Shown in pieces: positions 1 through 60,391 of a stretch of DNA of 64,000 bases. The stretch lies in the NCBI GenBank assembly GCA_038087875.1, contig CM075994.1, positions 6,202,001-6,266,000 of the forward strand, in the 5' to 3' direction. How positions within the stretch are numbered: the first letter of the stretch is position 1; each line of letters begins with the position of its first letter. The DNA comes from Malacoraja senta (lineage: Eukaryota). The notes under the pieces were generated by a model that was not told where the DNA came from, searched no databases, and saw only the letters and a program-made list of their open reading frames with translations. The translations under genes were made by a program, and so were the position numbers.

Positions 1-320
1 GGGCCTCTTTACTTTAGTTACTTTAGAGATACAGCGTGGAAACAGGCCCTTCGGCCCACCGAGTCTTCGCCGACCAGCGATCACCCCATACATTAGCTCT
101 ATCCTACACACAGGAAACAATTTACAATTGAAGCCAGAAGCTAATATCCGACAAACCTCTACGTCTATGGAGCATGGGAAGAAACCGGTGAACCTAGAAA
201 AAACCCACGCAATCACAGGGAGAATATGTAAATTTTGTGCAGACTGCACCCATTGTCAGCATCAAACCAGGATCTCTGGCGTTGTAAGGCAACAACTCTA
301 CCGTTTTGCTACCCATGTCA
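1..320 (-). mobile_element. HE1-like V-SINE (tRNA-derived head, V-domain, CR1-like tail)
   Basis: Reverse complement of the recurrent SINE: tail '...gggcctgtttccacgctgtatctctaaa', V-domain and 'ggtagagttg' head remnant. Confidence 0.8.
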
Positions 321-4683: not shown

Positions 4684-4804
4684 CTGCCTTCATCGTGCTT
4701 TGGTTCTTTCTTCCAATACATGTAGCCAACGATAGCTACGATGATAGTTCCCACAATTCCCGCAGTAATCAAGCCAATATGGAGTGCTTGCTGTAGCTTG
4801 ACAC
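4684..4804 (-). CDS. CD2/SLAM-family receptor, transmembrane exon
   Basis: Phase-1 acceptor cctttttcag|GT. Encodes GVKLQQALHIGLITAGIVGTIIVAIVGYMYWKKEPKHDEG (hydrophobic helix plus basic stop-transfer). Donor AG|gtactc at 4683. Confidence 0.8.
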
Positions 4805-4906
4805 CTGAAAAAGGATCGACATTCAACTGTGATTCCATCAGTGTGTTAATGCAGAGAAATATAAAATGAACTTTGCTCAAAAATAAGAAATGCAGCTGCA
4901 TGCACT

Positions 4907-5600
4907 GGGGTGGCGCCGTCAGCATTGGCAGCCTCGCCAACGGTCTGTCTGTCTTTTCGTCCATTTTGGTATTTTTAGTATGTTTTAAAAGTTGTGTTAA
5001 TGTTCTCTGGTTTGTTTTATGTGGGGGGTGAGGGAGGGGGTCGGGGGAAACTTTTTTTCAATCTCTTATCTTGCCGGAGATGTGATTTTCTTCCAGATCA
5101 TATCTCTGGTCGCTCTGCGGCCTAACATCATGGAGCTGGCTTTGAGCCCCACCGCGAGGCAATGGACTTACCATCGGAGCCGGCGATCCCTTGAGTGGAG
5201 GAGCATCGAGGAGACTGATGTCGGGAAGCTCCAAATTCACAAGAGGTTCGACCAGCCCCGACCCGGGGTCCGATCGCCCGATGCGGGGGACTGAGATCCC
5301 CTCCGATGTGGGAGCTTGTCACCCCGACGCGGAGTGCCTGACCGCCAGCTACGGGAGCCAAGATCGCCCCGACAACAGAAGGCTCGAGGCCCCTGACCGC
5401 AGGAGAACAAAGGGGAAGAGATTGAACTATTTTTCGCCTTCCATTACAGTGAGGAATGTGGGGGAGTCATAGTGTTGGATGTTTATGTTAAAATGGATTT
5501 TGTGTGTTTTGTTGATTTTTATTTGTATGACTATGGCAAATCAAATTCCTCGTTTGTTGCAAAACATACTTGGCTAATAAAGTATGATTATTATCATGAA
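4907..5600 (+). mobile_element. Non-coding retroelement (conserved 5' head, GC-rich middle, LINE-like 3' end with microsatellite tail)
   Basis: Shares its 5' head and 3' block with 5689-6554 and 32858-33599. Ends in aataaa followed by a (TATGAT)-like tail. Confidence 0.6.
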
Positions 5601-5688
5601 TTTTGACGACGGAAACTGTTCTTAAGGAGATCTGCAAGATTAAGATTGCAGCCTGAAGAAGGGTCCCCAAGCTAAAGGTCACCTCATA

Positions 5689-6554
5689 GGGGGCGCTGTC
5701 CTGTGCACGGCTGCCCAGCCAGCAGCTGTCTGTCTCTTCATCTTTTTATTTTTATTTTAGTTAGTTAAGTGTTTTGTTTGGAGGTCTAGACTTTTATATG
5801 TGGGGGTTGAGGGGGGGGGGAAGGGGGAAACTACCTTTCAGGGTCCCTACCTGGTCGGACAGGCAGCTTTTCTCCGGGCTGCAGCTTCGACCCGTCCTCG
5901 CGGCCTACCAGCGGGCCTGGAGCGGCGTTTCCTGTCAGGGACCGCCCAGAACCTCGGCTTCGGCGGCGGCACAGCGCTGGAGCGCTATCGCGGAACGGGC
6001 GATGCCTTGCCCGGGTCGCCACGCTGGAGCTCCGGTGAGCTGAGGATCGCTGGGGAAAACATCGCGGAGCTGCGGGACTGTGGAGCGACCAGCTGTGGGC
6101 GGTGGTGCTGAACTTTACACCGGGAGCCTGGGATCTCTAGATGAGATCGCCAATTGTGGAGCTCCAACCGGCGCGGCCTTGTTGGCTTCGGAAGCCGCGG
6201 CCCCCAGTGCGGAAGCGGCCGTTCCAGGGTTCCCAGGCAGCTGGGAGGACTCTCCCGACGCCGGAGCAACATCACCCGGCGAGAACGGCCTGGAACATCG
6301 GGCCTCCGTAGAGGCAACTGTGGAGGCCTCAATGGGCCCGACTATGGGTGAACTGGGGTTGGGGACTGGACTTTGTGCCTTCCCTCATGGTGGGAGCCAT
6401 TGTGGGGGGATGTTCTTTGTGTTAAGACTCTTATTGGTGTTATGTCTGTATTCTCTTTTTTTTGTGTGCTGCATAATGGCAAGAAGCATTTCACTTCACT
6501 ACACCTGGGTGTATGTGAATGTGACTAATAAAATACCTTTGACCTTTGACCTTT
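5689..6554 (+). mobile_element. Non-coding retroelement of the same type, inserted in a Penelope-derived repeat
   Basis: Head gggggcgctgtc..., tail aataaa + (CCTTTGA)n. The flanks rejoin into the ctgaagaagggt...gtcacct / ...gggatgctgcctgaccc repeat. Confidence 0.6.
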
Positions 6555-6584
6555 ATGTGTTACAGGGATGCTGCCTGACCCACT

Positions 6585-6900
6585 GGGTTTAGTTTAGTTT
6601 AGAGATACAGCGGGGAAAAAGGCCCTTTGACCCATGGAGTCCGCGCCGACCAGCGATCCCCGCACACTAACGCTATCCCACACACACTCGGGACAATTTA
6701 CAATTATACCAAGCCAATTAACCTACAAATCAATGCGTCTTTGGAATGTAGGAGGAAACCGGAGATCCTGGAGAAAACTCACTCAGGTCACAGGGAGAAC
6801 ATACAAACTCCGAACAGACAAGCACCCGTAGTTAGGATCGAACCTGGGTCTCTGGTGCTGTAAGGCAGCAACTCTGCTGCTACGCCATCGTGCCGCCCAC
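6585..6900 (-). mobile_element. HE1-like V-SINE, near full length
   Basis: A/B-box-like head (ggttcgatcc), V-domain and (TAAAC)n tail. Confidence 0.85.
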
Positions 6901-8790
6901 CGTGTCGTTCCAGCACTTTGTGTCTTTCTTTGTAAACCAGAATATGCAGCCCTTTGCTTCAACATTTCGTCTGTCAGATTATAACTGGTTTAAACAGTGT
7001 AGAGCGTGTTACTGACAGCAGATCGCTCAAGAACTGGGGGTGACACATTTATAATTTGGAGCAAAGGATGAAAGTGTGGAGGGGCATAGATGCAGTATAA
7101 GGAGAATGATTGTGATCTGGAATTCAGTATCTAGGACTGGGAGTATCGGAATCCATTAGAGGTTTCAAGATGGATAGATTGGATGTGGAGAGGATGCTTC
7201 CACAAGTGTGAGAGTCTAGGACCAAAGGACACAGCCTCAGAATAAAAGGACGTACCTTGAGAAAGGAGATGAGGAGGAATTTCTTTACCAGAGGGTGGCG
7301 AATCTGTTGAATTTATTGCCACAGATGGCAGTGGAGGCCGTCATTGGGCATTTTTTAGGCGGAGATTGACAGATTCTTGATTAGTGAGGATGTCAATGGT
7401 TATGGAAAGGAGGCAGGAGAATGGGGTTAACAGGGAAAGATAGATCAGCCATGATTGAATAGCGGATTAGACCCTCTGCGGCACATGGCCTAATTCTGCT
7501 CCTATGGCTCATTAACCTGTGGGATGGAAATTAAAAGGCCTGCATTGGGAAAAAGAAATTACCAATCCCTGGGAAAGAAGTGGGGTGATTTGAACTGCCG
7601 TGATTGTTGAACGAGAATGAGAGATCAAAATGGCCTCCTTCTGTAGAACAAATAGTCTGTCATTGCAGAGAACATGAAAGTACATGAAGTGAAGAACGTG
7701 GGGAATCTGCTGTGGTGGATGTTTATGTTAACTTTTATGTAGTTGTGCATCTTGTTGCTATTTTTTAGTATGGCTGTATGGTAATCTGAATTTCTCTGTA
7801 CCTTCATTGGTATGACCATGAAACCTTGAAATCTTGAAACACCAGGTCTCAGAATATCAAATCCATGCCCTGTTCTTCACAGGAACTTGGAAGCAGGCCC
7901 TTTGGCCCATTGAGTCCATGCCATCCATTGATCGCTTGTATACTGTCCTTTTCTACAGGGATGCTGCCTGAACCGCTGAGTTACTTCAACATTTTTTGTC
8001 TATCACCCATATACTAGTTTGATGTCTTCACACCAGGGGCAATTTACAGAAGCCAATTAACCTGCAAACCTATACATTTTTGGGATACTCTGAAAGAGAA
8101 AAAAATTGCAATAGGACTGGTAACACACAACTTATCCCATATTGAATAATTCCATATCAAGGATTCAGCAAATCCGTCCAATCACTCCTTTTATTTTGAT
8201 TATTTTTACTAATTTACATCTTGCTTACAAAATCCAAAAGTTTTAATTTCATTTAGACTTTACATTAGACTAAACATACAGTGTGGAAACAGGCCCTTCG
8301 GCATGCTAAATCCGCGCCAATCAGCGATCGGCCCATACACTAGCACGATCCTACACACTAGGGGCAATTTGCTTAAGCCATTTAACCTATAAACTTGCAC
8401 ATCTTGGGAGTGTGGGAGGAAACCAGATCACCCAAAGAAAACCCATGTGGTCACAGTGAGAACGTGCAAACTCCATACAGACAGCACCGTAGTCAGGATT
8501 GATTCCGGCTCTCTGGCGCTGTAAGGCAGCAACTCTACCGCTGCGCCACTGCTGCCATCTGTGTCCTCTTAGTTAATTTCTCGTGACTAATTTTGGTCGA
8601 GTTCAAGGCAAGCGGAATTCAAATTCTGCATTTGAAGGTGCACGCATTGGAAAAAGTCAGTCGGCGGATCACAGAGATATTATTTCAACCCCAGCACTGA
8701 ACCCGGGAAATGATAAAGCCATTAATTTGAATGCATAAAGTCAGTAAAAAGCCGTTCTTGATAAGGGAAACTGTCCTGTAAACTAGCGTG

Positions 8791-9021
8791 TTAAAGAAGG
8801 AACTGCAGATGCTGGAAAATCGAAGGTACACAAAAATGCTGGAGAAACTCAGCGGGTGCAGCAGCATCTATGGAGCGAAGGAAATAGGTAACGTTTCGGG
8901 CCGAAACCCTTCTTCAGACACATAAAAAGTCTGAAGAAGGGTTTCGGCCCGAAACGTTACCTATTTCCTTCGCTCCATAGATGCTGCTGCACCCGCTGAG
9001 TTTCTCCAGCATTTTTGTGTA
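8791..9021. mobile_element. Perfect 96-bp palindromic Penelope-derived element carrying hammerheads on both strands, 16-bp TSD
   Basis: Arms 8824-8919 and 8929-9024 are exact reverse complements around a 9-nt loop. Direct repeat CCTGTAAACTAGCGTG at 8775-8790 and 9022-9037. Core is CUGAAGA-A-GGGU(UUCG)GCCC-GAAACGUU. Confidence 0.9.
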
Positions 9022-10073
9022 CCTGTAAACTAGCGTGACAGATTCTCATTACCAGATCTCTGAGTCTGATAGTGATATAGCCAATCCAGTGTCACCAACA
9101 ATTCACCCTTCTCAGAAGCAGGACCAGGTTTCGCTGGTCGGTGTTGAAGGGCCTGTTTCCATGCTGTATCTCTAAACTAAATTAAATTTAAAAGCTATTA
9201 GTTCCAAATGATAATCATTTTGTACAAAAAAATGTTCTCTTTCATCACTTGTGCCTTCTGCCCATTATCTATCCTCTAGCCCTGGAAACCTGCCAATGGA
9301 AAAATCATCTTAAAGGCTGCTGACATTTTGCCCAGTGGCATAAAATATTCAGTGCACTTCCCAACAACCCTTTGAGCTTCATATGCATTAGAGAAATTTA
9401 GTTTAGTTTAGAGATACAGCACGGAAACAAGCCCTTAGGCACACCGAGTCTGTGCCGACCAATGATCTCCGTACACTAGCACGATCCTACACTCCAGGGA
9501 CAATTTACAATTTTTACCGAAGCCAAATTATCATATACGAACAGGCTTTGCTGTGTGGGAGGAAACCAGAGCACCCGGGGAAAACACATACGTCACGGGG
9601 AGAACGTACAAACTCCGTACAGACAGTACCCGTAGTTAGGACTGAACCTGAGTCTCTAGCACTGTTAGGCAACAACTCTTTCGTTGCGCCACCAAAACCA
9701 CCCTGGTTGCACCAGGTTGTGAGAACCAGTTTAGTAAACTATTCATCAATGGTACAATCTAGAGGGAATGGTGGAAAAAAGATTTCCTCAAATATAAATA
9801 GTAATTCCAGAGTGACATCAATGTTGTTGAACTTGAATGATTCCCATCCCTTACAGCCAAGCACTGACTAATCCACAGATAGGACCAGTTGGAATGAAAT
9901 AGCAAAGTAAACATTGTAGGTTTACACTCAAGGCTTCACATTCCTGTAAACCATTGATCCATTTATGACCTGACCCGATCCATCAGAAGGAGTTTGACTT
10001 GGAAAGAAAGGAAATTAAAAGCCTTGACTATTCCTGAATAGTGTGCTTGGAGTGAAAAGATAAAGCCACAAAC

Positions 10074-10364
10074 CTTCATGGGCAGGACAGAGCTCTGTTA
10101 GATCCACGCTCCGCGTCTCCTCACTAACAGGGTTCTCCACGGTGCAGTTGTACACGCTGTTGTTGTTGGGTAGAGCTATGGATAGTGCCAGCCTTCTCCC
10201 TTCGTCAGTCAGTATGTGCGATCCATCTGCCGTGACCTTGCCATCTCCTGACCACCAAGTGTAGACTGGCTCAGTGCCGTGCTCCAATGAACATACCAAG
10301 CTAACGTTACACACCCCGTCAGTGAAGGTTTCACTGACATTTATTACTGGTAATGACACTCGTT
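10074..10364 (-). CDS. CD2/SLAM-family receptor, IgC2 domain exon
   Basis: ERVSLPVI..CNVSLVC..PVYTW..YNCTVENPVS..LCP: four-Cys SLAM-type C2 domain with the NPVS motif. Acceptor aaacag|, donor G|gtttgt, phase 1-1. Confidence 0.92.
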
Positions 10365-10979
10365 CTGTTTCAAAGAAAAGCACAAATACAAGCCATGGAA
10401 TAATAACAACCAGAAGCTGCTAGCCATGAGTTTCCCACAAGAACATTAAGAGTTGAAGACAGTTTAGTTTAGTTTAGAGATACAACGCAGAAAGAAGCCC
10501 TTCGGGCCCACCGAGTCCTCGCCGACCAGCGCACACTAGCCCTATCCTACACACACTACGGACAATTTACAAACTGTGTACAGACAAGCACCTAGTTTTA
10601 GTGCAAAATCCTTCCCGTGAGTTTACAAAAATGAATCGTCCAGGTTACACTTTGCCACCAAAACTAGATCACAAGTAAACTCGTTATTAGCAGAGAAAAA
10701 TTAATGTCTGTGGACCTATCATCTTACAGAAAAGTCAGATGGCTTGGAGACCTCCCTTCAAGAACCCAAATGCACCTCCGTTTGTATTTAAACAGCAACT
10801 ACTGAGGATGGGTTCCTAAATAAGCAAGGACTCCAACCCATGTGATGTTTCAGTATTCACCATGCCCGTATAACCCACAGACATGGGGCTCACATCGTAA
10901 GCATCTCCCCTTACATCTTTAACTTCTTAAAGGTTGTTAGATTGGAAAATGTACCGTTATTTAAATTGAAATAGATTAC

Positions 10980-11309
10980 CATAAATCGTCAGTTCTGTCA
11001 CTTGTTCATGGACAGCCAGAGTCGTCCTTAAGTTCATTTCATATAGACCTTGATCATGTTCTGTTAGGTTCTGTATTTCCAGACTACAGTCCTTCAGGTT
11101 TAACCTGATACGCTGTTTGTTATATTGTATTGGATTGTTTTGACTTTTCACGCATAATTGAACCTTTTCTGTTGTTGGAGAACTTTTGTAATCCCAAGTA
11201 AGGATCAAAATATTTTCTCCTGAGATACATCCTGGTAACGTGACTGACTGTCCCAGTGTCCCTTTCACCAAGCGACGAGTGCCTGGTTTCCCAGCAGTCT
11301 GTCCCAGAC
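10980..11309 (-). CDS. CD2/SLAM-family receptor, IgV domain exon
   Basis: GTLGQSVTL..W..RI..SLEIQNLTEHDQGLYEM..LTIY: V-set domain lacking the F-strand Cys, as in CD2/SLAM N-domains. Acceptor ttctgtttcag|, donor G|gtaatc, phase 1-1. The splice gives the junction IY-ERVS.P. Confidence 0.92.
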
Positions 11310-20449: not shown

Positions 20450-22985
20450 TTGTAAATTGTCCCTTGTGTGTGTAGGATAGTGTAAATGTATGGGGTGATG
20501 TCTGGTCGGCACAGACTTGATGGACTGAATGGCCGGTTTCCGCACTGTGTCACTAAACTAATTCCATATGTTCGTCAAAGGAGCAGAATTAGGCCAGTCG
20601 GCCCATCGAGTCTACTCTGCCATTCAATCATGGTCGATCTATCTTTCCCGCTCAACCCCATTCACCTGGGCGGCACGGTGGCCCAACGGTAGAGTTGCTG
20701 CCTTACAGCGCTTGCAGCGTTGGACTCCTGGGTTTGATCCAGACTACGGGTGCAGTCTGTACGGAGTTTGTACGATTTCCACGTGACTGCGTGGGTTTTC
20801 TCCGAGATCTTCGGTTGCGTCCCACACCCCAATGACGTGCAGATATGTAGGTAAATTGGCTTGGTAAATGTAAAAATAGTCCCTAGTGTGTGTAGGATAG
20901 TGTTAATATGCGGGGATCGCTGGTCGGTAGAGTTGCTGCCTTACAGTGCTTGCAGCGCCGGACACTCGGGTTACATCCAGACTATGGGTGCCGTCTGTTC
21001 CGGAGTTTGTACTTTCTCCCTGTGACCGCGTGGGTTTTCTCCGGGTGCTCTGGTTTCCTTCCACATTCCAAAGAGGTGCAGATTTGTCGGTGAATTGGCT
21101 TCTTTAAATTGTTCCTAGTTTGTAGCATAGCACTCATGTGAACGGGTTATTGCTGGTCGGCGTGAACTCGGAGTGCATGGAAAGAATATAAATTCTTATG
21201 CTATCAGATCATTTTCATTAGTCATTTCAAAACCTCTGCTTGTGGACCCTAGTCATATTGTAAACCATCAGATTTTCCGAAGCAGGCTCTCAGCAAGGCC
21301 GTTCTCAGGCTTGGAGCCCTGGCACTGCTAACATATCAAGCTTCTAAAATGCTGCACTTCGAATGCTGTTTTTTCTCTTCAGCTCATTACGATGGTGCTA
21401 ACCACTCTACCCATCCCACTCAAAAACACGTACCTCCACGCCCATTAATCCCAGGGACAGGACATTACTTTGCTCGGAGCTGCCTAACTACCAGAAGGAT
21501 AGGATTTCACGTTCTTTACTGGCAGGAATTAATATCAAGTTTCCTCCTGCAAATAATAGATAAGTTTGGGCAGCACAGTGGCGCAGCAGTAGAGTTGCTG
21601 CCTCACAGCACCAGAGACCCGGGTTCAATCTTGATTTGGGGTGCTGTCTGTATGGAGTTTGCTCGTTCTCCCTGTGACCGCATGGGTTTCGTCCGAGTGC
21701 TCCGGTTTCCTCCCACACTCCAAAGACGTGCGGGTTTGTAGGTTAATTGGCTCTGGTAAAATTGTAAGTTGTCCCTAGTGTGTGTTGGATAGTGTAAGTG
21801 TATGGGGTGATCACTGGTCGGCACGGACTCGATGGGCCGGTTTCCACTGTATCACTAAACTAAACTAATTTCATATGTTCATAAATCATAGGAGCAGAAT
21901 TAGGCCAGTTGGCCCATCGAGTCTACTCCGCCATTCAATCACGGTCGATCTATCTTTCCCGCTCAACCCCATTCTCCTGCCTTCTCCCCATAACCTGGGC
22001 AGCACGGTGGCGCAACGGTAAAGTTGCTGCCTTACAGCGCTTGCAGCGTTGGACACCTGGGTTCGATCCTGACTACGGGTGCTGTCTGTACGGGGTTTGT
22101 ACGATTTCCACATGACTGCGTGGGTTTTGTTCGAGATCTTCAGTTTCGTCCCGCACTCCAAAGACGTGCAGGTATGTAGGTAAATTGGCTTGGTAAATGT
22201 AAAAATTGTCCCGACTGTGTGTAGGATTTTGTTAATATGTGGGGATTGCTGGTCGGTAGAGTTGCTGCCTTCCAGCGCTTGCACCGCCGGACACCCAGGT
22301 TTGATCCAGACTACGGGTGCTGTCTGTACGGAGTTTGTACGTTCTCCCTGTGACCGCATGGGTTTTCTCCGGGCGCTCTAGTTTCCTTCCACATTCCAAA
22401 GAGGTGCAGATTTGTCAGTGAATTGGCTTCTTAAAATTGTTCCTAGTTTGTAGCACAGAACTCATGTGAACGGGTTATTGGTGGTCGGTGTGAACTCAGA
22501 GTACATGGATATTTAGTCATGCCGAAAAGAATATAAATTCTTATGCTTGCAGATCATTTTCATTAGTCATTTCAAAACCTCCGCTTGTGGACCCTAGTCA
22601 TATTGTAATCCATCAGATTTTCCTTAGCAGGCTCTCAGCAAGGCCGTTCTCAGGCTTGGAGCCCTGGCACTGCTAACATGTCAAGCTTCTAATATGCTGC
22701 ACTAGGAATGCTGTTTTTTCTCTTCAGCTCATTACGATGGTGCTAACCACTCTACCCATCCCACTCAAAAACATGTACCTCCACGCCCATTAATCCCAGG
22801 GACATTACATTACTTGGCATGCTTGATCGGAGCTGCCTAAGTCACAGAAAGATAGGGTTTCACATTCTTTACGGGCATGAGTTAATATCAAGTTTCCTGC
22901 TGGAAATGATGGGTAAGTTTGGGCGGCACGGTGGCGCAGCGATAGAGTTGCTGCCTCACGGCGCCAGAGACATGGGCTCAATTTT
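20450..22985 (+). repeat. Tandem segmental duplication, two ~1.3 kb copies
   Basis: Unique block 21180-21567 recurs at 22525-22920, with the same CR1/SINE junction (20580, 21890) and the same SINE-dimer junction (20925, 22255). Confidence 0.85.
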
Positions 22986-57520: not shown

Positions 57521-60391
57521 CAGGCCCCGACTCGCTGGAAACCCGGAGCGGGTAGCAGCGGGGTGAGGGGCAGTATAGGAGCAGTTAGCAGAGGGAGGGA
57601 GGGCCGCTTCAAAAGCAAGCCGGGCAGCTCATGAGCGCCGGTGACCTCGGGATCTGCAGAACTTGCTCGTTCTTTCTGTGCCCTTTGAAGAACGGGGGGG
57701 GGGGGGAGGAGGGTGGTGACGTAACTCGTGGAAAACCGTGTCCTTGTGCGTTGACAGCAGCTGCTTTAATCCAGAGCCCGGGGGCTGGGCCACGTCATCA
57801 GCTGGCCAGCGGTTAGATTTGGGGGGGGGGGGGGGAAGTCAGATTTGTGGAACAAGTTTAGTTTTAAAAACTCAGGAAATAATTAACCAAATTTAGAGAT
57901 GTGTGGATTTTTGAAATCATGAGGTAAATCTCTACCGGAATGTGTAAAAATTTGACCGTTTCTGTTATGACAAGTAGAACATTACCCTCGCCCACGTTGC
58001 CTGTAAAACCCCTCGCCCACGTTGCCTGTAAGCTTGTGAAAGCCCCACCACCACAAAGGTCAGCACCCTGAAAGTGCTACTGAGTTCATTTCCTTGCTGA
58101 AACCTTCCTTGTCAGTGAAACAAAAATGAAGGACAGACACTGTAATCTTGAGCAATACACAAAGTGCTGGTGGAACTCAGTGGGTCAGGCAGCATCTGCA
58201 GAGAAGAAGGGGTTTCGGCCCGAAACGTTGCCTATTTCCTTCGCTCCATAGATGCTGCTGCACCCGCTGAGTTTCTCCAGCATTTTTGTGTACCTTCGAT
58301 TTTCCAGCATCTGCAGTTCCTTCTTTAACACAGCATCTGCAGAGAGATGTTTCGAATTTGGACCCGTCTTCAGTCTGATTGTAGTAGGGGGAGGGGAGGG
58401 GGGGGGGGCGAAAGGTGTATAACACAGGTGGGGCCAAGGACAAAGCCTGGAAAGTGGTTAAACACAAAATGCTGGAGCAACTGAACGGGACTGGCAGCAT
58501 CTCTGAAGAGAAGGAATGCGTCTGAAAAAGGGTCTCGATCCAAACCGTCACCCATTCTTTCTCTCCTGAGATGCTGCCTGCCCCACTGAGTTACTCCAGC
58601 ATTTTCTGTCTATCTTCAGTTTAAACCAGCATCTTCAGTTTTTTCCTACATGAGTGACAGGTGGATGCAGGTAAAAGAGAGGTTTCTGTAGGACTGCAGA
58701 TGTGTAGGAAAGAACTTCAGATGCTGGTTTAAAACGAAGGTAGACACAAAATGCTGGAGTAACTCAGTGGGTCAGGCAGCATCTCTGGAGAGAAGGAATG
58801 AGTGACATTTTGGGTCGAGACCCCTTCTTCAGACTGACACCAGGAGAACTTCAAGTCACCCTTGCTTTCCCTCTCTCTTCATTCCTCACCTTCCCAGTTC
58901 TCTGACCAGTCTTACTGTCTCTGACTATATTCCTTCTCTCCAGAGATGCTGCCTGTCCCACTGAGTTACTCAAGCATTTTGTGTCTTTCTTCAGTTTAAA
59001 CCAGCATCTGCAGTTCCTTCCTACACTAGTGATAGTGGATACAGGTGAAGGTGGGTGTTGATGGGGAGAGATTAAAAGATTAAAAGGGGGCAAAAGTCTG
59101 TTAGTTAAGGAGAGAATTGGGGGGAAATGTAAAGCCAGGGGGAGATGATTGAGGAAGAGATGTGGGGATATCAGCCATTCATTTGAGGGCGGCACGGTTA
59201 CGCAGCAATAGAGTTGCTACCTCACAGCGCCAGAGACCCGGGTCCGATCCTGACCACGGGTGCTGGCTGAACGAGTTTGTACTTTCTCCCCGTGACTTGC
59301 GTGGGTTGCCTCCGGGTGCTCCGGTTTCCTCCAGAAGTTAATTAGTTTCTGTTTTAAAAAAAAGTTAATTATCCCTTTAAGGGTTTGGACAGCTAGAGGC
59401 AGGAAACATGTCCAGAACCAGGGGGCTACAGTTTAAGAATAAGGGGTAAGCCATTTAGAACGGAGACGCGGAAACACTTATTCACACAGAGTTGTGAGTC
59501 TGTGGAATTCTCCGCCTCAGAGGGTTCTCTGGATATTTTCAAAAGAGAGCTAGATAGGGCTCTTAAAGATAGCGGAGTCAGGGGATATGGGGAGAAGGCA
59601 GGAACGGGGTACTCATTGGGGATGATCAGCTATGATCACATTGAATGGCGGTGCTGGCTCGGTTCTCTACTCCAGCACCTATTGTCTATTGTGTATGGTG
59701 TGTATGTGAGATAGCGCTGTATCTCTAAAGTTTAAAGTAATCTATGCGTTCGCTAATAATAAATGTAACAATAATCAATACACTGGTGCGTAATACGGAT
59801 TCCAAGGGCGTCTGACGAAGACTCCCGATCCCAAAGGTGGTCTATCTAAATCTCCACCACCACCCCCCCCCCCTCCCTCCCCTCCGCATATGCTTCCGCT
59901 GAGTTTCTGAAGAAGGGTCCTGACCCGAAACGTCCATTTTATTCCCAGCTTCCTTTGTCTGAATATACGACACAAAATGCTGGAGTAACTCAGCGGGTTT
60001 CCGAAGAATGTCCCGGCCCGAAACGGCACCTACCCGATTTCCCCCAGAGATTTTTCCCCAAAGTTCTCTGACCAGTCTACTGTATCTGACTACATTCCTC
60101 TCCAGAGATGCTGCCTGTCCCGCCGAGTTCATTTCGTGCCTACCTTCGTATTAAACCAACATCAGCAGTTCCTTTCTCGGCCTCCTTTGTTTGAAAGAGG
60201 GAAAAATTCTCGGCCAGCCAACAACCCAGCGAAAATCAATACGCACCTAAAACGGACATCCCTAAAGATGCGATCGGCAGATCAAAGTAAGGGGAAAGTA
60301 AAATATCTTGAAGCAGTAAGAAAAGATCCGCGATATTGCAAGTCCGGACAGAAAGCAGACAGACACCAAACAGTTCAGGGTGTGAACTAAC

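Follow-up and report, generated by a model that had tools for sequence, protein, structure and literature searches.

A palindromic hammerhead-bearing insert in an intron is a young Penelope-like element stub, probably made by two-sided target priming

The DNA analysed here, a stretch of 64,000 nucleotides referred to throughout as the window, contains a minus-strand host gene (4684-11309) in which V and C2-type immunoglobulin (Ig) exons and a transmembrane exon were located, the leader and cytoplasmic exons not being located (Table 1). The three exons, all with AG/GT borders, join in frame and are predicted from the sequence to form part of an immune-type gene, and their order is presumably that of the CD2/SLAM-type layout. 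The insert that is the subject of this report lies in a 5.3-kb intron, with the second Ig exon (10074-10364) on the upstream side and the transmembrane exon (4684-4804) on the downstream side, and the flanking exons confirm the intronic position that an original prediction had assigned to it.

This insert consists of two head-to-head, 5'-truncated ends of a Penelope-like element (PLE), as established by its source element, arm ends, duplication and empty site. Its inverted-repeat arms (8824-8919 and 8929-9024) are 96 nt each, 100% complementary and 9 nt apart, and the 16-mer at 8775-8790 is repeated exactly at 9022-9037, 247 bp on, so that the perfect 96-bp inverted repeat and the 16-bp target-site duplication read from the letters at the outset are both borne out. 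In record 9 of run X2, a contig of organism B, position 8774 is followed at once by 9022 and the 16-mer is present a single time, so that the insert measures 247 bp including one duplication; the flanks of this empty-site contig differ from the locus at 20/242 and 9/119 letters, and X1 and X3 contigs also begin matching at 9022, bridging of the site being seen in the X2 contig only. Three bases at each end of the 16-mer are common to the element ends, left and right, which places the real nick offset between 10 and 16 bp. With arm positions numbered from C3 of the hammerhead core (position 0), both arms have their 5' ends exactly at -2 around a filler spacer, in a copy free of substitutions and with no ORF between the arms. 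The insert is asymmetric in that the left arm has 33 more bases (8791-8823), or 36 counting the three shared with the duplication, and its predicted fold (-198.8 kcal/mol, z -34) was equalled in stability by 0 of 200 shuffles. The locus is a young, ordinary PLE insertion stub, or scar, and not a new ribozyme element. Elsewhere in the window, a second young tail-bearing stub, 98% identical, lies inside an older, oppositely oriented copy (58203-58328, plus strand), and two similar segments about 1.3 kb apart (21174-21549 and 22502-22913) have near-identical translations in otherwise unmasked DNA.

Table 1. Features of the host gene and of the insert, in window coordinates
Feature	Position	Strand	Basis or remark
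Host exon, Ig V-set domain	10980..11309	-	PF07686, E 3.7e-9; splice sites, frame
Host exon with the second Ig domain, just upstream of the insert's intron	10074..10364	-	PF13927, E 6.1e-7
Host exon, transmembrane segment, downstream neighbour of the insert's intron	4684..4804	-	In frame with the Ig exons, AG/GT
Target-site duplication, left copy	8775..8790		16-mer; its last 3 bases also belong to the left arm's tail end
Left arm, PLE pLTR end with tail, -2 to +129	8788..8919	-	0/132 differences from L032
PLE tail, 36 nt, left arm only	8788..8823	-	3' end mapping of copies
Left copy of the minimal type I hammerhead, in sense orientation in the host pre-mRNA	8888..8919	-	Predicted cut 8890/8889; motif scan
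9-bp spacer, unique to this insertion	8920..8928		Filler between the two arm ends
Minimal type I hammerhead, right copy	8929..8960	+	Predicted cut between 8958 and 8959; motif scan
Right arm, pLTR end, -2 to +93, short 3' end	8929..9024	+	0/96 differences from L032
Target-site duplication, right copy	9022..9037		First 3 bases common to the short end of the right arm

Over their 132 and 96 bases both arms match without a difference the full-length copy L032 (G000:C1:20901000-20910999), which upholds the earlier view that the insertion is young. The open frame of L032, 1,212 codons with a long proline-rich stretch (L032:3192-6827), starts at +163, beyond the tail, and has modest Pfam scores, with an RT domain (PF00078, E 5.9e-4, below the curated cut-off) and, at the C terminus, a GIY-YIG domain (E 1.4e-4 on the last 176 aa); Atlas neighbour clusters of its protein at 0.96-0.98 carry RVT_1/GIY-YIG. 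RT motif 5 reads YIND in L032 and YIDD in five other copies, and the linker between RT and GIY-YIG holds a CX2-5CxxC motif at residue 1079 of the ORF. This linker is described as defining the Neptune clade and as shared with Nematis (PMC8557442), and by it the source element would be of Neptune type, through a motif that Nematis has too. A direct repeat of 1,841 bp, 99.1% identical, makes L032 a partial tandem, and further tandems occur in other copies. An ORF with RT and GIY-YIG, a pLTR tandem, a tail at one end, an inverted truncated copy and a duplication of variable length together identify the insertion as that of an EN+ PLE. Just before the hammerhead, in L032 (L032:2975-3028) and in older copies, that is, in all subfamilies, stands a pyrimidine tract ending in CAG, readable as a splice acceptor or as an initiator-like motif.

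The family, which presumably resembles a repeat from skates and rays, is very abundant: exact-pattern searches of the genome gave 6,504 copies of the 38-base hammerhead and 23,111 of the 29-base 3' anchor, with 0 for the reversed controls. The insert had been called a stand-alone element, a description that fails already within the window, where 30 related copies are found at E<=1e-6.

Each strand of the insert carries the hammerhead motif as originally read, directed outward from the centre. The motif has the full core (C3-A9, G12-A14, A15.1-U16.1, G10.1-C11.1 and NUH) with an extra base after A9, as in metazoan PLEs, which supports its assignment to the PLE-type minimal hammerheads; helix II has 4 bp, helix III is palindromic with two pairs, and helix I has 2 bp rather than 4-5, with a pairing probability of 0.0 in either arm's fold. 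In the Rfam check proposed at the outset, run on positions 7000-11000 at E up to 5, no hammerhead was among the 13 matches, which were only generic miRNA-like hairpins below gathering scores, and thermodynamic folding of the single arms, and cofolding of two copies, gave no hammerhead. An alignment of 144 copies with the tail, out of 579 hits, has 19 columns in which a second letter reaches 25% or more, and 0 of the 13 core columns are among them; the contrast between core and flanks is weak (Fisher P 0.21), as is that between majority frequencies of 0.955 in the core and 0.942 in invariant non-core columns. Four variable hammerhead columns are all tolerated, being changes in the loop, from U-A to U-G in helix II, between C and U at H17, and from A-U to G-U in helix I.

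Folding of the arm that has the tail predicts pairing between the core and the end of the tail (P 0.98-1.0) and between the start of the tail and +48..55, which would close -2..+129 (window 8791-8919, minus strand) as one domain; no compensatory changes were found across subfamilies. In the whole insert the core is predicted to pair with the antisense arm, with an unpaired probability of <=0.0011, in agreement with the original suggestion that the hairpin sequesters the ribozyme. By the same folding model the antisense arm, transcribed first in the host pre-mRNA, would bury the hammerhead in a 96-bp duplex.

Cleavage does not define the stubs, most of which start elsewhere than at the cut site. 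In two of the seven tandem arrays examined, nevertheless, the units begin at the predicted cut (+28) and are without the core: L166 (L166:1420-2901, 138-bp units), where the joint with its own subfamily's letter at +28 has no microhomology and the other subfamily's letter would give one of 6 bases, and L192 (L192:1031-1613, 165-bp units, with a 1-base ambiguity). Arms ending at +27..32 make up 6 of the 95 that reach the region, as compared with 1.3 expected (P 0.002), several of them at inverted junctions. These arrays and ends hint, without proving it, that some RNAs, a minority, may be cut in vivo by the hammerhead. Other arrays, head-to-tail and retrozyme-like, derive from the pLTR and ORF start of the same PLE and have units of 384 bp (L036, 13 units), 254 bp (L193), 275 bp (L194), 219 bp (L195, starting at -1/0) and 327 bp (L210). 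Head-to-tail units that each carry a hammerhead, as in a non-LTR retrozyme, are found in L036, L193, L195 and L210, and not at the locus. One near full-length copy, L208, starts at +25..28.

The ends of copies were mapped in 102 arms with an exact 3' anchor, from 96 loci around the first 100 anchor places listed (two of the 96 lie just past that list and were chosen by hammerhead pattern), mostly in the first 60 Mb of one contig. Two classes of 3' end account for nearly all arms, 67 ending at +92..95 (short) and 32 at +123..131 (tail), with 3 elsewhere. At the 5' side 39 arms end at -6..+2, a density of 0.064 per nt against a background of about 0.002 on either side, and the remainder end at +3..+12 (18), at +27..32 (6), upstream of -6 (29) or elsewhere (10). 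An inverted partner is present for 40 of the 102; among the 62 arms without one, 29 have their 5' end at -6..+2 and 42 have a callable duplication, of 13-16 bp in 26 cases. In 81 short copies of older subfamilies conservation likewise drops upstream of -2. Genome-wide, apparent 5' ends number 2,468 at -2, 1,599 at -3, 871 at -4 and 318 at +3, as counted with patterns that each omit places with C at the first position and, for +3, differ slightly at the 3' end.

A G precedes 54 of 100 listed ends at -2, scored by eye, where 30% is expected (P 5e-7), and 40 of 86 once self-duplications are removed (by eye, again against 30%, P 9e-4); before -3 the excess is weak (38 of 100 listed, by eye, P 0.011), and before -4 there is none (29 of 100 listed, by eye). 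A fixed 5' end 2 nt before the hammerhead core, often after an extra G, suggests a candidate capped RNA start, and a reverse-transcribed cap or untemplated addition could give the excess. Pieces entering from the ORF likewise stop at -1 to -5 (L195, L198, L207 and L211). Copies whose tail continues into the ORF mostly extend upstream of -6 as seamless tandems, which implies that many templates start further upstream or switch template. In the contigs of three putative RNA runs, all from other organisms, no splice-type joint was seen. Several individual junctions also deserve mention. In L207, L198 and L211, pieces with an end at -3 to -5 adjoin others that begin inside the ORF, with one run of C and one of A at the joint in L207, as though RT had jumped from an RNA 5' end to the 3' end of another RNA; at L006, L029, L086, L091 and L125 there are short duplications, at the 5' junction, of the first 10 bases of the element, which is typical of repeated annealing in end-joining; and a 2-base addition recurs before -4 ends in L256-L261, loci chosen for that motif.

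The inverted pairs follow a simple rule. In 56 distinct pairs, which represent all loci collected and include pairs chosen by junction pattern, 47 combine a short with a tail end, 1 has two short ends, 0 have two tails and 8 have an atypical end, where independent pairing of ends as found in unpaired copies (50 short and 12 tail of 62) would give 65% short+short (P 6e-23). Arms obeying the rule range from about 40 bp to 2.5 kb, so that it is not inherited from one master palindrome. Both arms have the same 5' class in 39 of the 47 short+tail pairs (permutation mean 21.8; 0/20,000), and in 25 of 29 pairs not chosen by junction pattern, as scored by hand, against about 10 expected. Microhomology at 3' junctions averages 1.47 nt over 68 junctions as compared with 0.72 in 1,500 planted controls, and reaches 2 nt or more in 46% as compared with 17%. 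Duplications of inverted pairs span 11-17 bp, none being callable in 13 of the 47. The subfamily marker at +28, read by hand, is the same in both arms of 26 of 28 pairs and differs in 2; such agreement would come from one RNA but equally from two, if subfamilies were active at different times.

We consider it probable that the insert was made at the site by two-sided target priming with run-off at the RNA 5' end. The PLE protein would nick both target strands some 13-16 bp apart, whereupon the two target 3' ends would prime on the RNA at different sites, short (+93) and tail (+129), helped in both cases by a few paired bases (3 and 3 at this locus). With priming on a pLTR copy near the RNA 5' end, the cDNAs would reach lengths of about 96 and 132 nt and then run off at a fixed RNA end, 2 nt ahead of the hammerhead core, that is most likely a capped transcription start. 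End-joining repair would then unite the two cDNA ends head to head, here with 9 filler bases and elsewhere often via a 4+4 bp micro-palindrome flanking position -1, and gap filling would produce the duplication. As the RNA has a pLTR at both ends, the 96- and 132-nt products would come from priming on the first copy, and long, randomly truncated ones from priming on the second. The insertion product is dead on arrival. A fuller version, to which we give somewhat less than even credence, would have a PLE dimer prime one RNA twice, at +93 and +129, from both strands, with strong-stop-like run-offs making up most copies, a capped start at -2, the +28 arrays as fossils of in vivo cleavage, and the tail as an anti-ribozyme switch pairing with the core.

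Four other accounts were weighed against this one. A palindrome that moves by itself as a non-autonomous unit (MITE- or retrozyme-like), transcribed and reinserted whole, as originally proposed, would explain the short+tail rule trivially through a fixed master, and the palindromic copies anticipated by that proposal do exist, 2,356 head-to-head junctions with <=13 bases between cores being found genome-wide and one 1-nt centre being shared by 25 of 49 fetched junctions. The locus's own junction, however, has 1 match in 1.94 Gb, the other 24 centres are of 22 types, and the shared centre is a natural micro-palindrome of the pLTR, present in old and young subfamilies alike. Arm lengths vary among the inverted copies, with the short+tail rule kept over the whole range given above, most arms (62/102) are without an inverted partner, and 3,600 of the 6,504 exact hammerhead copies run upstream into the autonomous element. 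Moreover, the one recurrent junction that was chased, seen 6 times (L242-L247), proved to be a single tail-bearing stub carried as a passenger inside a larger dispersed repeat and multiplied with it, the flanks being identical in 6/6, and a MITE-like unit is further contradicted by ends that differ by the tail and by duplications of 11-17 bp; we regard a mobile palindrome as extremely improbable. Fold-back, in which a cDNA self-primes and the tail stays on one side once an endonuclease has resolved the hairpin (as outlined in PMC3846280 and PMC8557442), accounts for identical arms, palindromic junctions and subfamily concordance. It requires the tail arm as template, yet in the 47 short+tail pairs the short arm reaches further 5' by more than 2 nt in 18 (once by about 600 nt, L096), the tail arm in 11 and neither in 18, which argues against fold-back copying of the tail arm; the self-priming proposed in these papers is on an antisense template. 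Filler spacers like that of the locus, moreover, sit between two complete -2 ends, and fold-back appears improbable. In a separate variant, a tail-primed short strand would anneal to the first cDNA via the predicted 5'-tail helix; the junction predicted by it was found in 1 of 100 listed +3 ends (by eye), and the variant was rejected.

It is also conceivable that a longer inverted insertion came first and lost its centre later. Long perfect inverted repeats are unstable, and symmetric loss would equalise the arm ends, but 29 of 62 unpaired copies end at the same place and, at the locus, both arms of a copy without substitutions stop exactly at -2 around filler, so that we hold this account to be very improbable. 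The remaining reading retains two-sided priming and replaces only the run-off step, taking the -2 boundary for a splice acceptor, for a point at which RT stops, or for the limit of exonuclease action at a fold bound by protein. The pyrimidine tract and CAG before the hammerhead, in old and young subfamilies, would suit it, as would the intron that ends at helix I in D. virilis and the predicted pairing of +1..+9 with the tail end in the 129-nt arm (P 0.98-1.0), which makes -2 also the edge of a folded domain. Splicing to exon ends would favour A at -3, whereas apparent ends are more numerous at -2 than at -3, and the junction from a donor-like site at the ORF start to the acceptor had 0 matches; back-splicing between these two sites was rejected on the same search. 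As the extra G fits a cap and the D. virilis Penelope pLTR has an internal promoter, a boundary other than a transcription start seems to us rather unlikely, and two-sided priming with run-off at a transcription start remains the preferred reading.

The locus itself is ordinary, and it is the class of copies that makes the copying mechanism testable through exact ends. These copies bear on the way in which inverted pLTRs with a tail on one side arise in PLEs, an open point in the portions of the literature drawn on here, and on the in vivo cutting by minimal hammerheads, 'still a mystery' in the section concerned of PMC7761336. Sharp predictions for an existing in vitro system follow from the short+tail rule, from the fixed 5' end and from the +28 arrays, and each of the at least 2,356 tight palindromes of this PLE is potentially a double-stranded RNA of about 100 bp if transcribed.

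The architecture, tail, duplication and minimal hammerhead are already published PLE features. EN+ PLE insertions (Pen2a_Av and others, PMC3846280; scheme in PMC8557442) are described, in the sections relevant here, with the same head-to-head inverted 5'-truncated pLTRs, a tail on one arm, a duplication and, at many junctions, a micro-palindrome as here; the duplication measures 8-10 bp there and 11-17 bp here, where no ORF lies between the arms, and the tail of 30-40 bp is optional there, whereas here short+tail is nearly a rule. The inverted shape is attributed in these sources to self-priming or endonuclease resolution. A literature search, with subscription journals, Repbase entries and supplements outside its coverage, found no paper stating the short+tail rule, the fixed 5' end or the cut-site arrays. 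Non-LTR retrozymes of animals, as presented in parts of bioRxiv 10.64898/2026.07.22.740005 and PMC7761336, are non-coding, pLTR-derived and hammerhead-bearing like the insert, but they are head-to-tail tandems; the head-to-head locus, unlike them, is unable to release a unit-length RNA.

The metazoan PLE minimal type I hammerheads of PMC4209133 share, in the account given there, the core, the extra base between 9 and 10.1 and the palindromic 15.2-16.2 with those described here, and occur mostly as dispersed truncated copies, with opposite-strand pairs 100-700 bp apart; the helices here (II of 4 bp, I of 2 bp) are shorter than the usual 7-8 and 4-5 bp, the D. virilis hammerhead likewise having a 2-bp helix I. 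Cutting by minimal PLE hammerheads was absent in monomers and weak in dimers, and 1/9 Xenopus retrozyme dimers cut. The anole hammerhead cuts only with protein, and the anole data in the sections used of PMC11167929 show no RNA ends at the hammerhead cut site. The anole PLE protein PAc (Poseidon) nicks and extends both strands in vitro, has two internal RT start sites whose spacing equals the tail, is a predicted dimer and has a hammerhead near the ORF start (PMC11167929, in the parts cited). The source element here differs from it in the CX2-5CxxC linker (Neptune type) and in an ORF that begins at +163, beyond the tail, and PAc primed without homology to the cut DNA, whereas microhomology at 3' junctions is modestly enriched here; the same parts of that paper do not derive inverted insertions from two-sided priming. 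The two 3' end classes of the present copies nevertheless match the two RT start sites and the both-strand extension of PAc, and these properties of the anole PLE, together with the copy data, support two-sided priming with run-off at a fixed RNA end.
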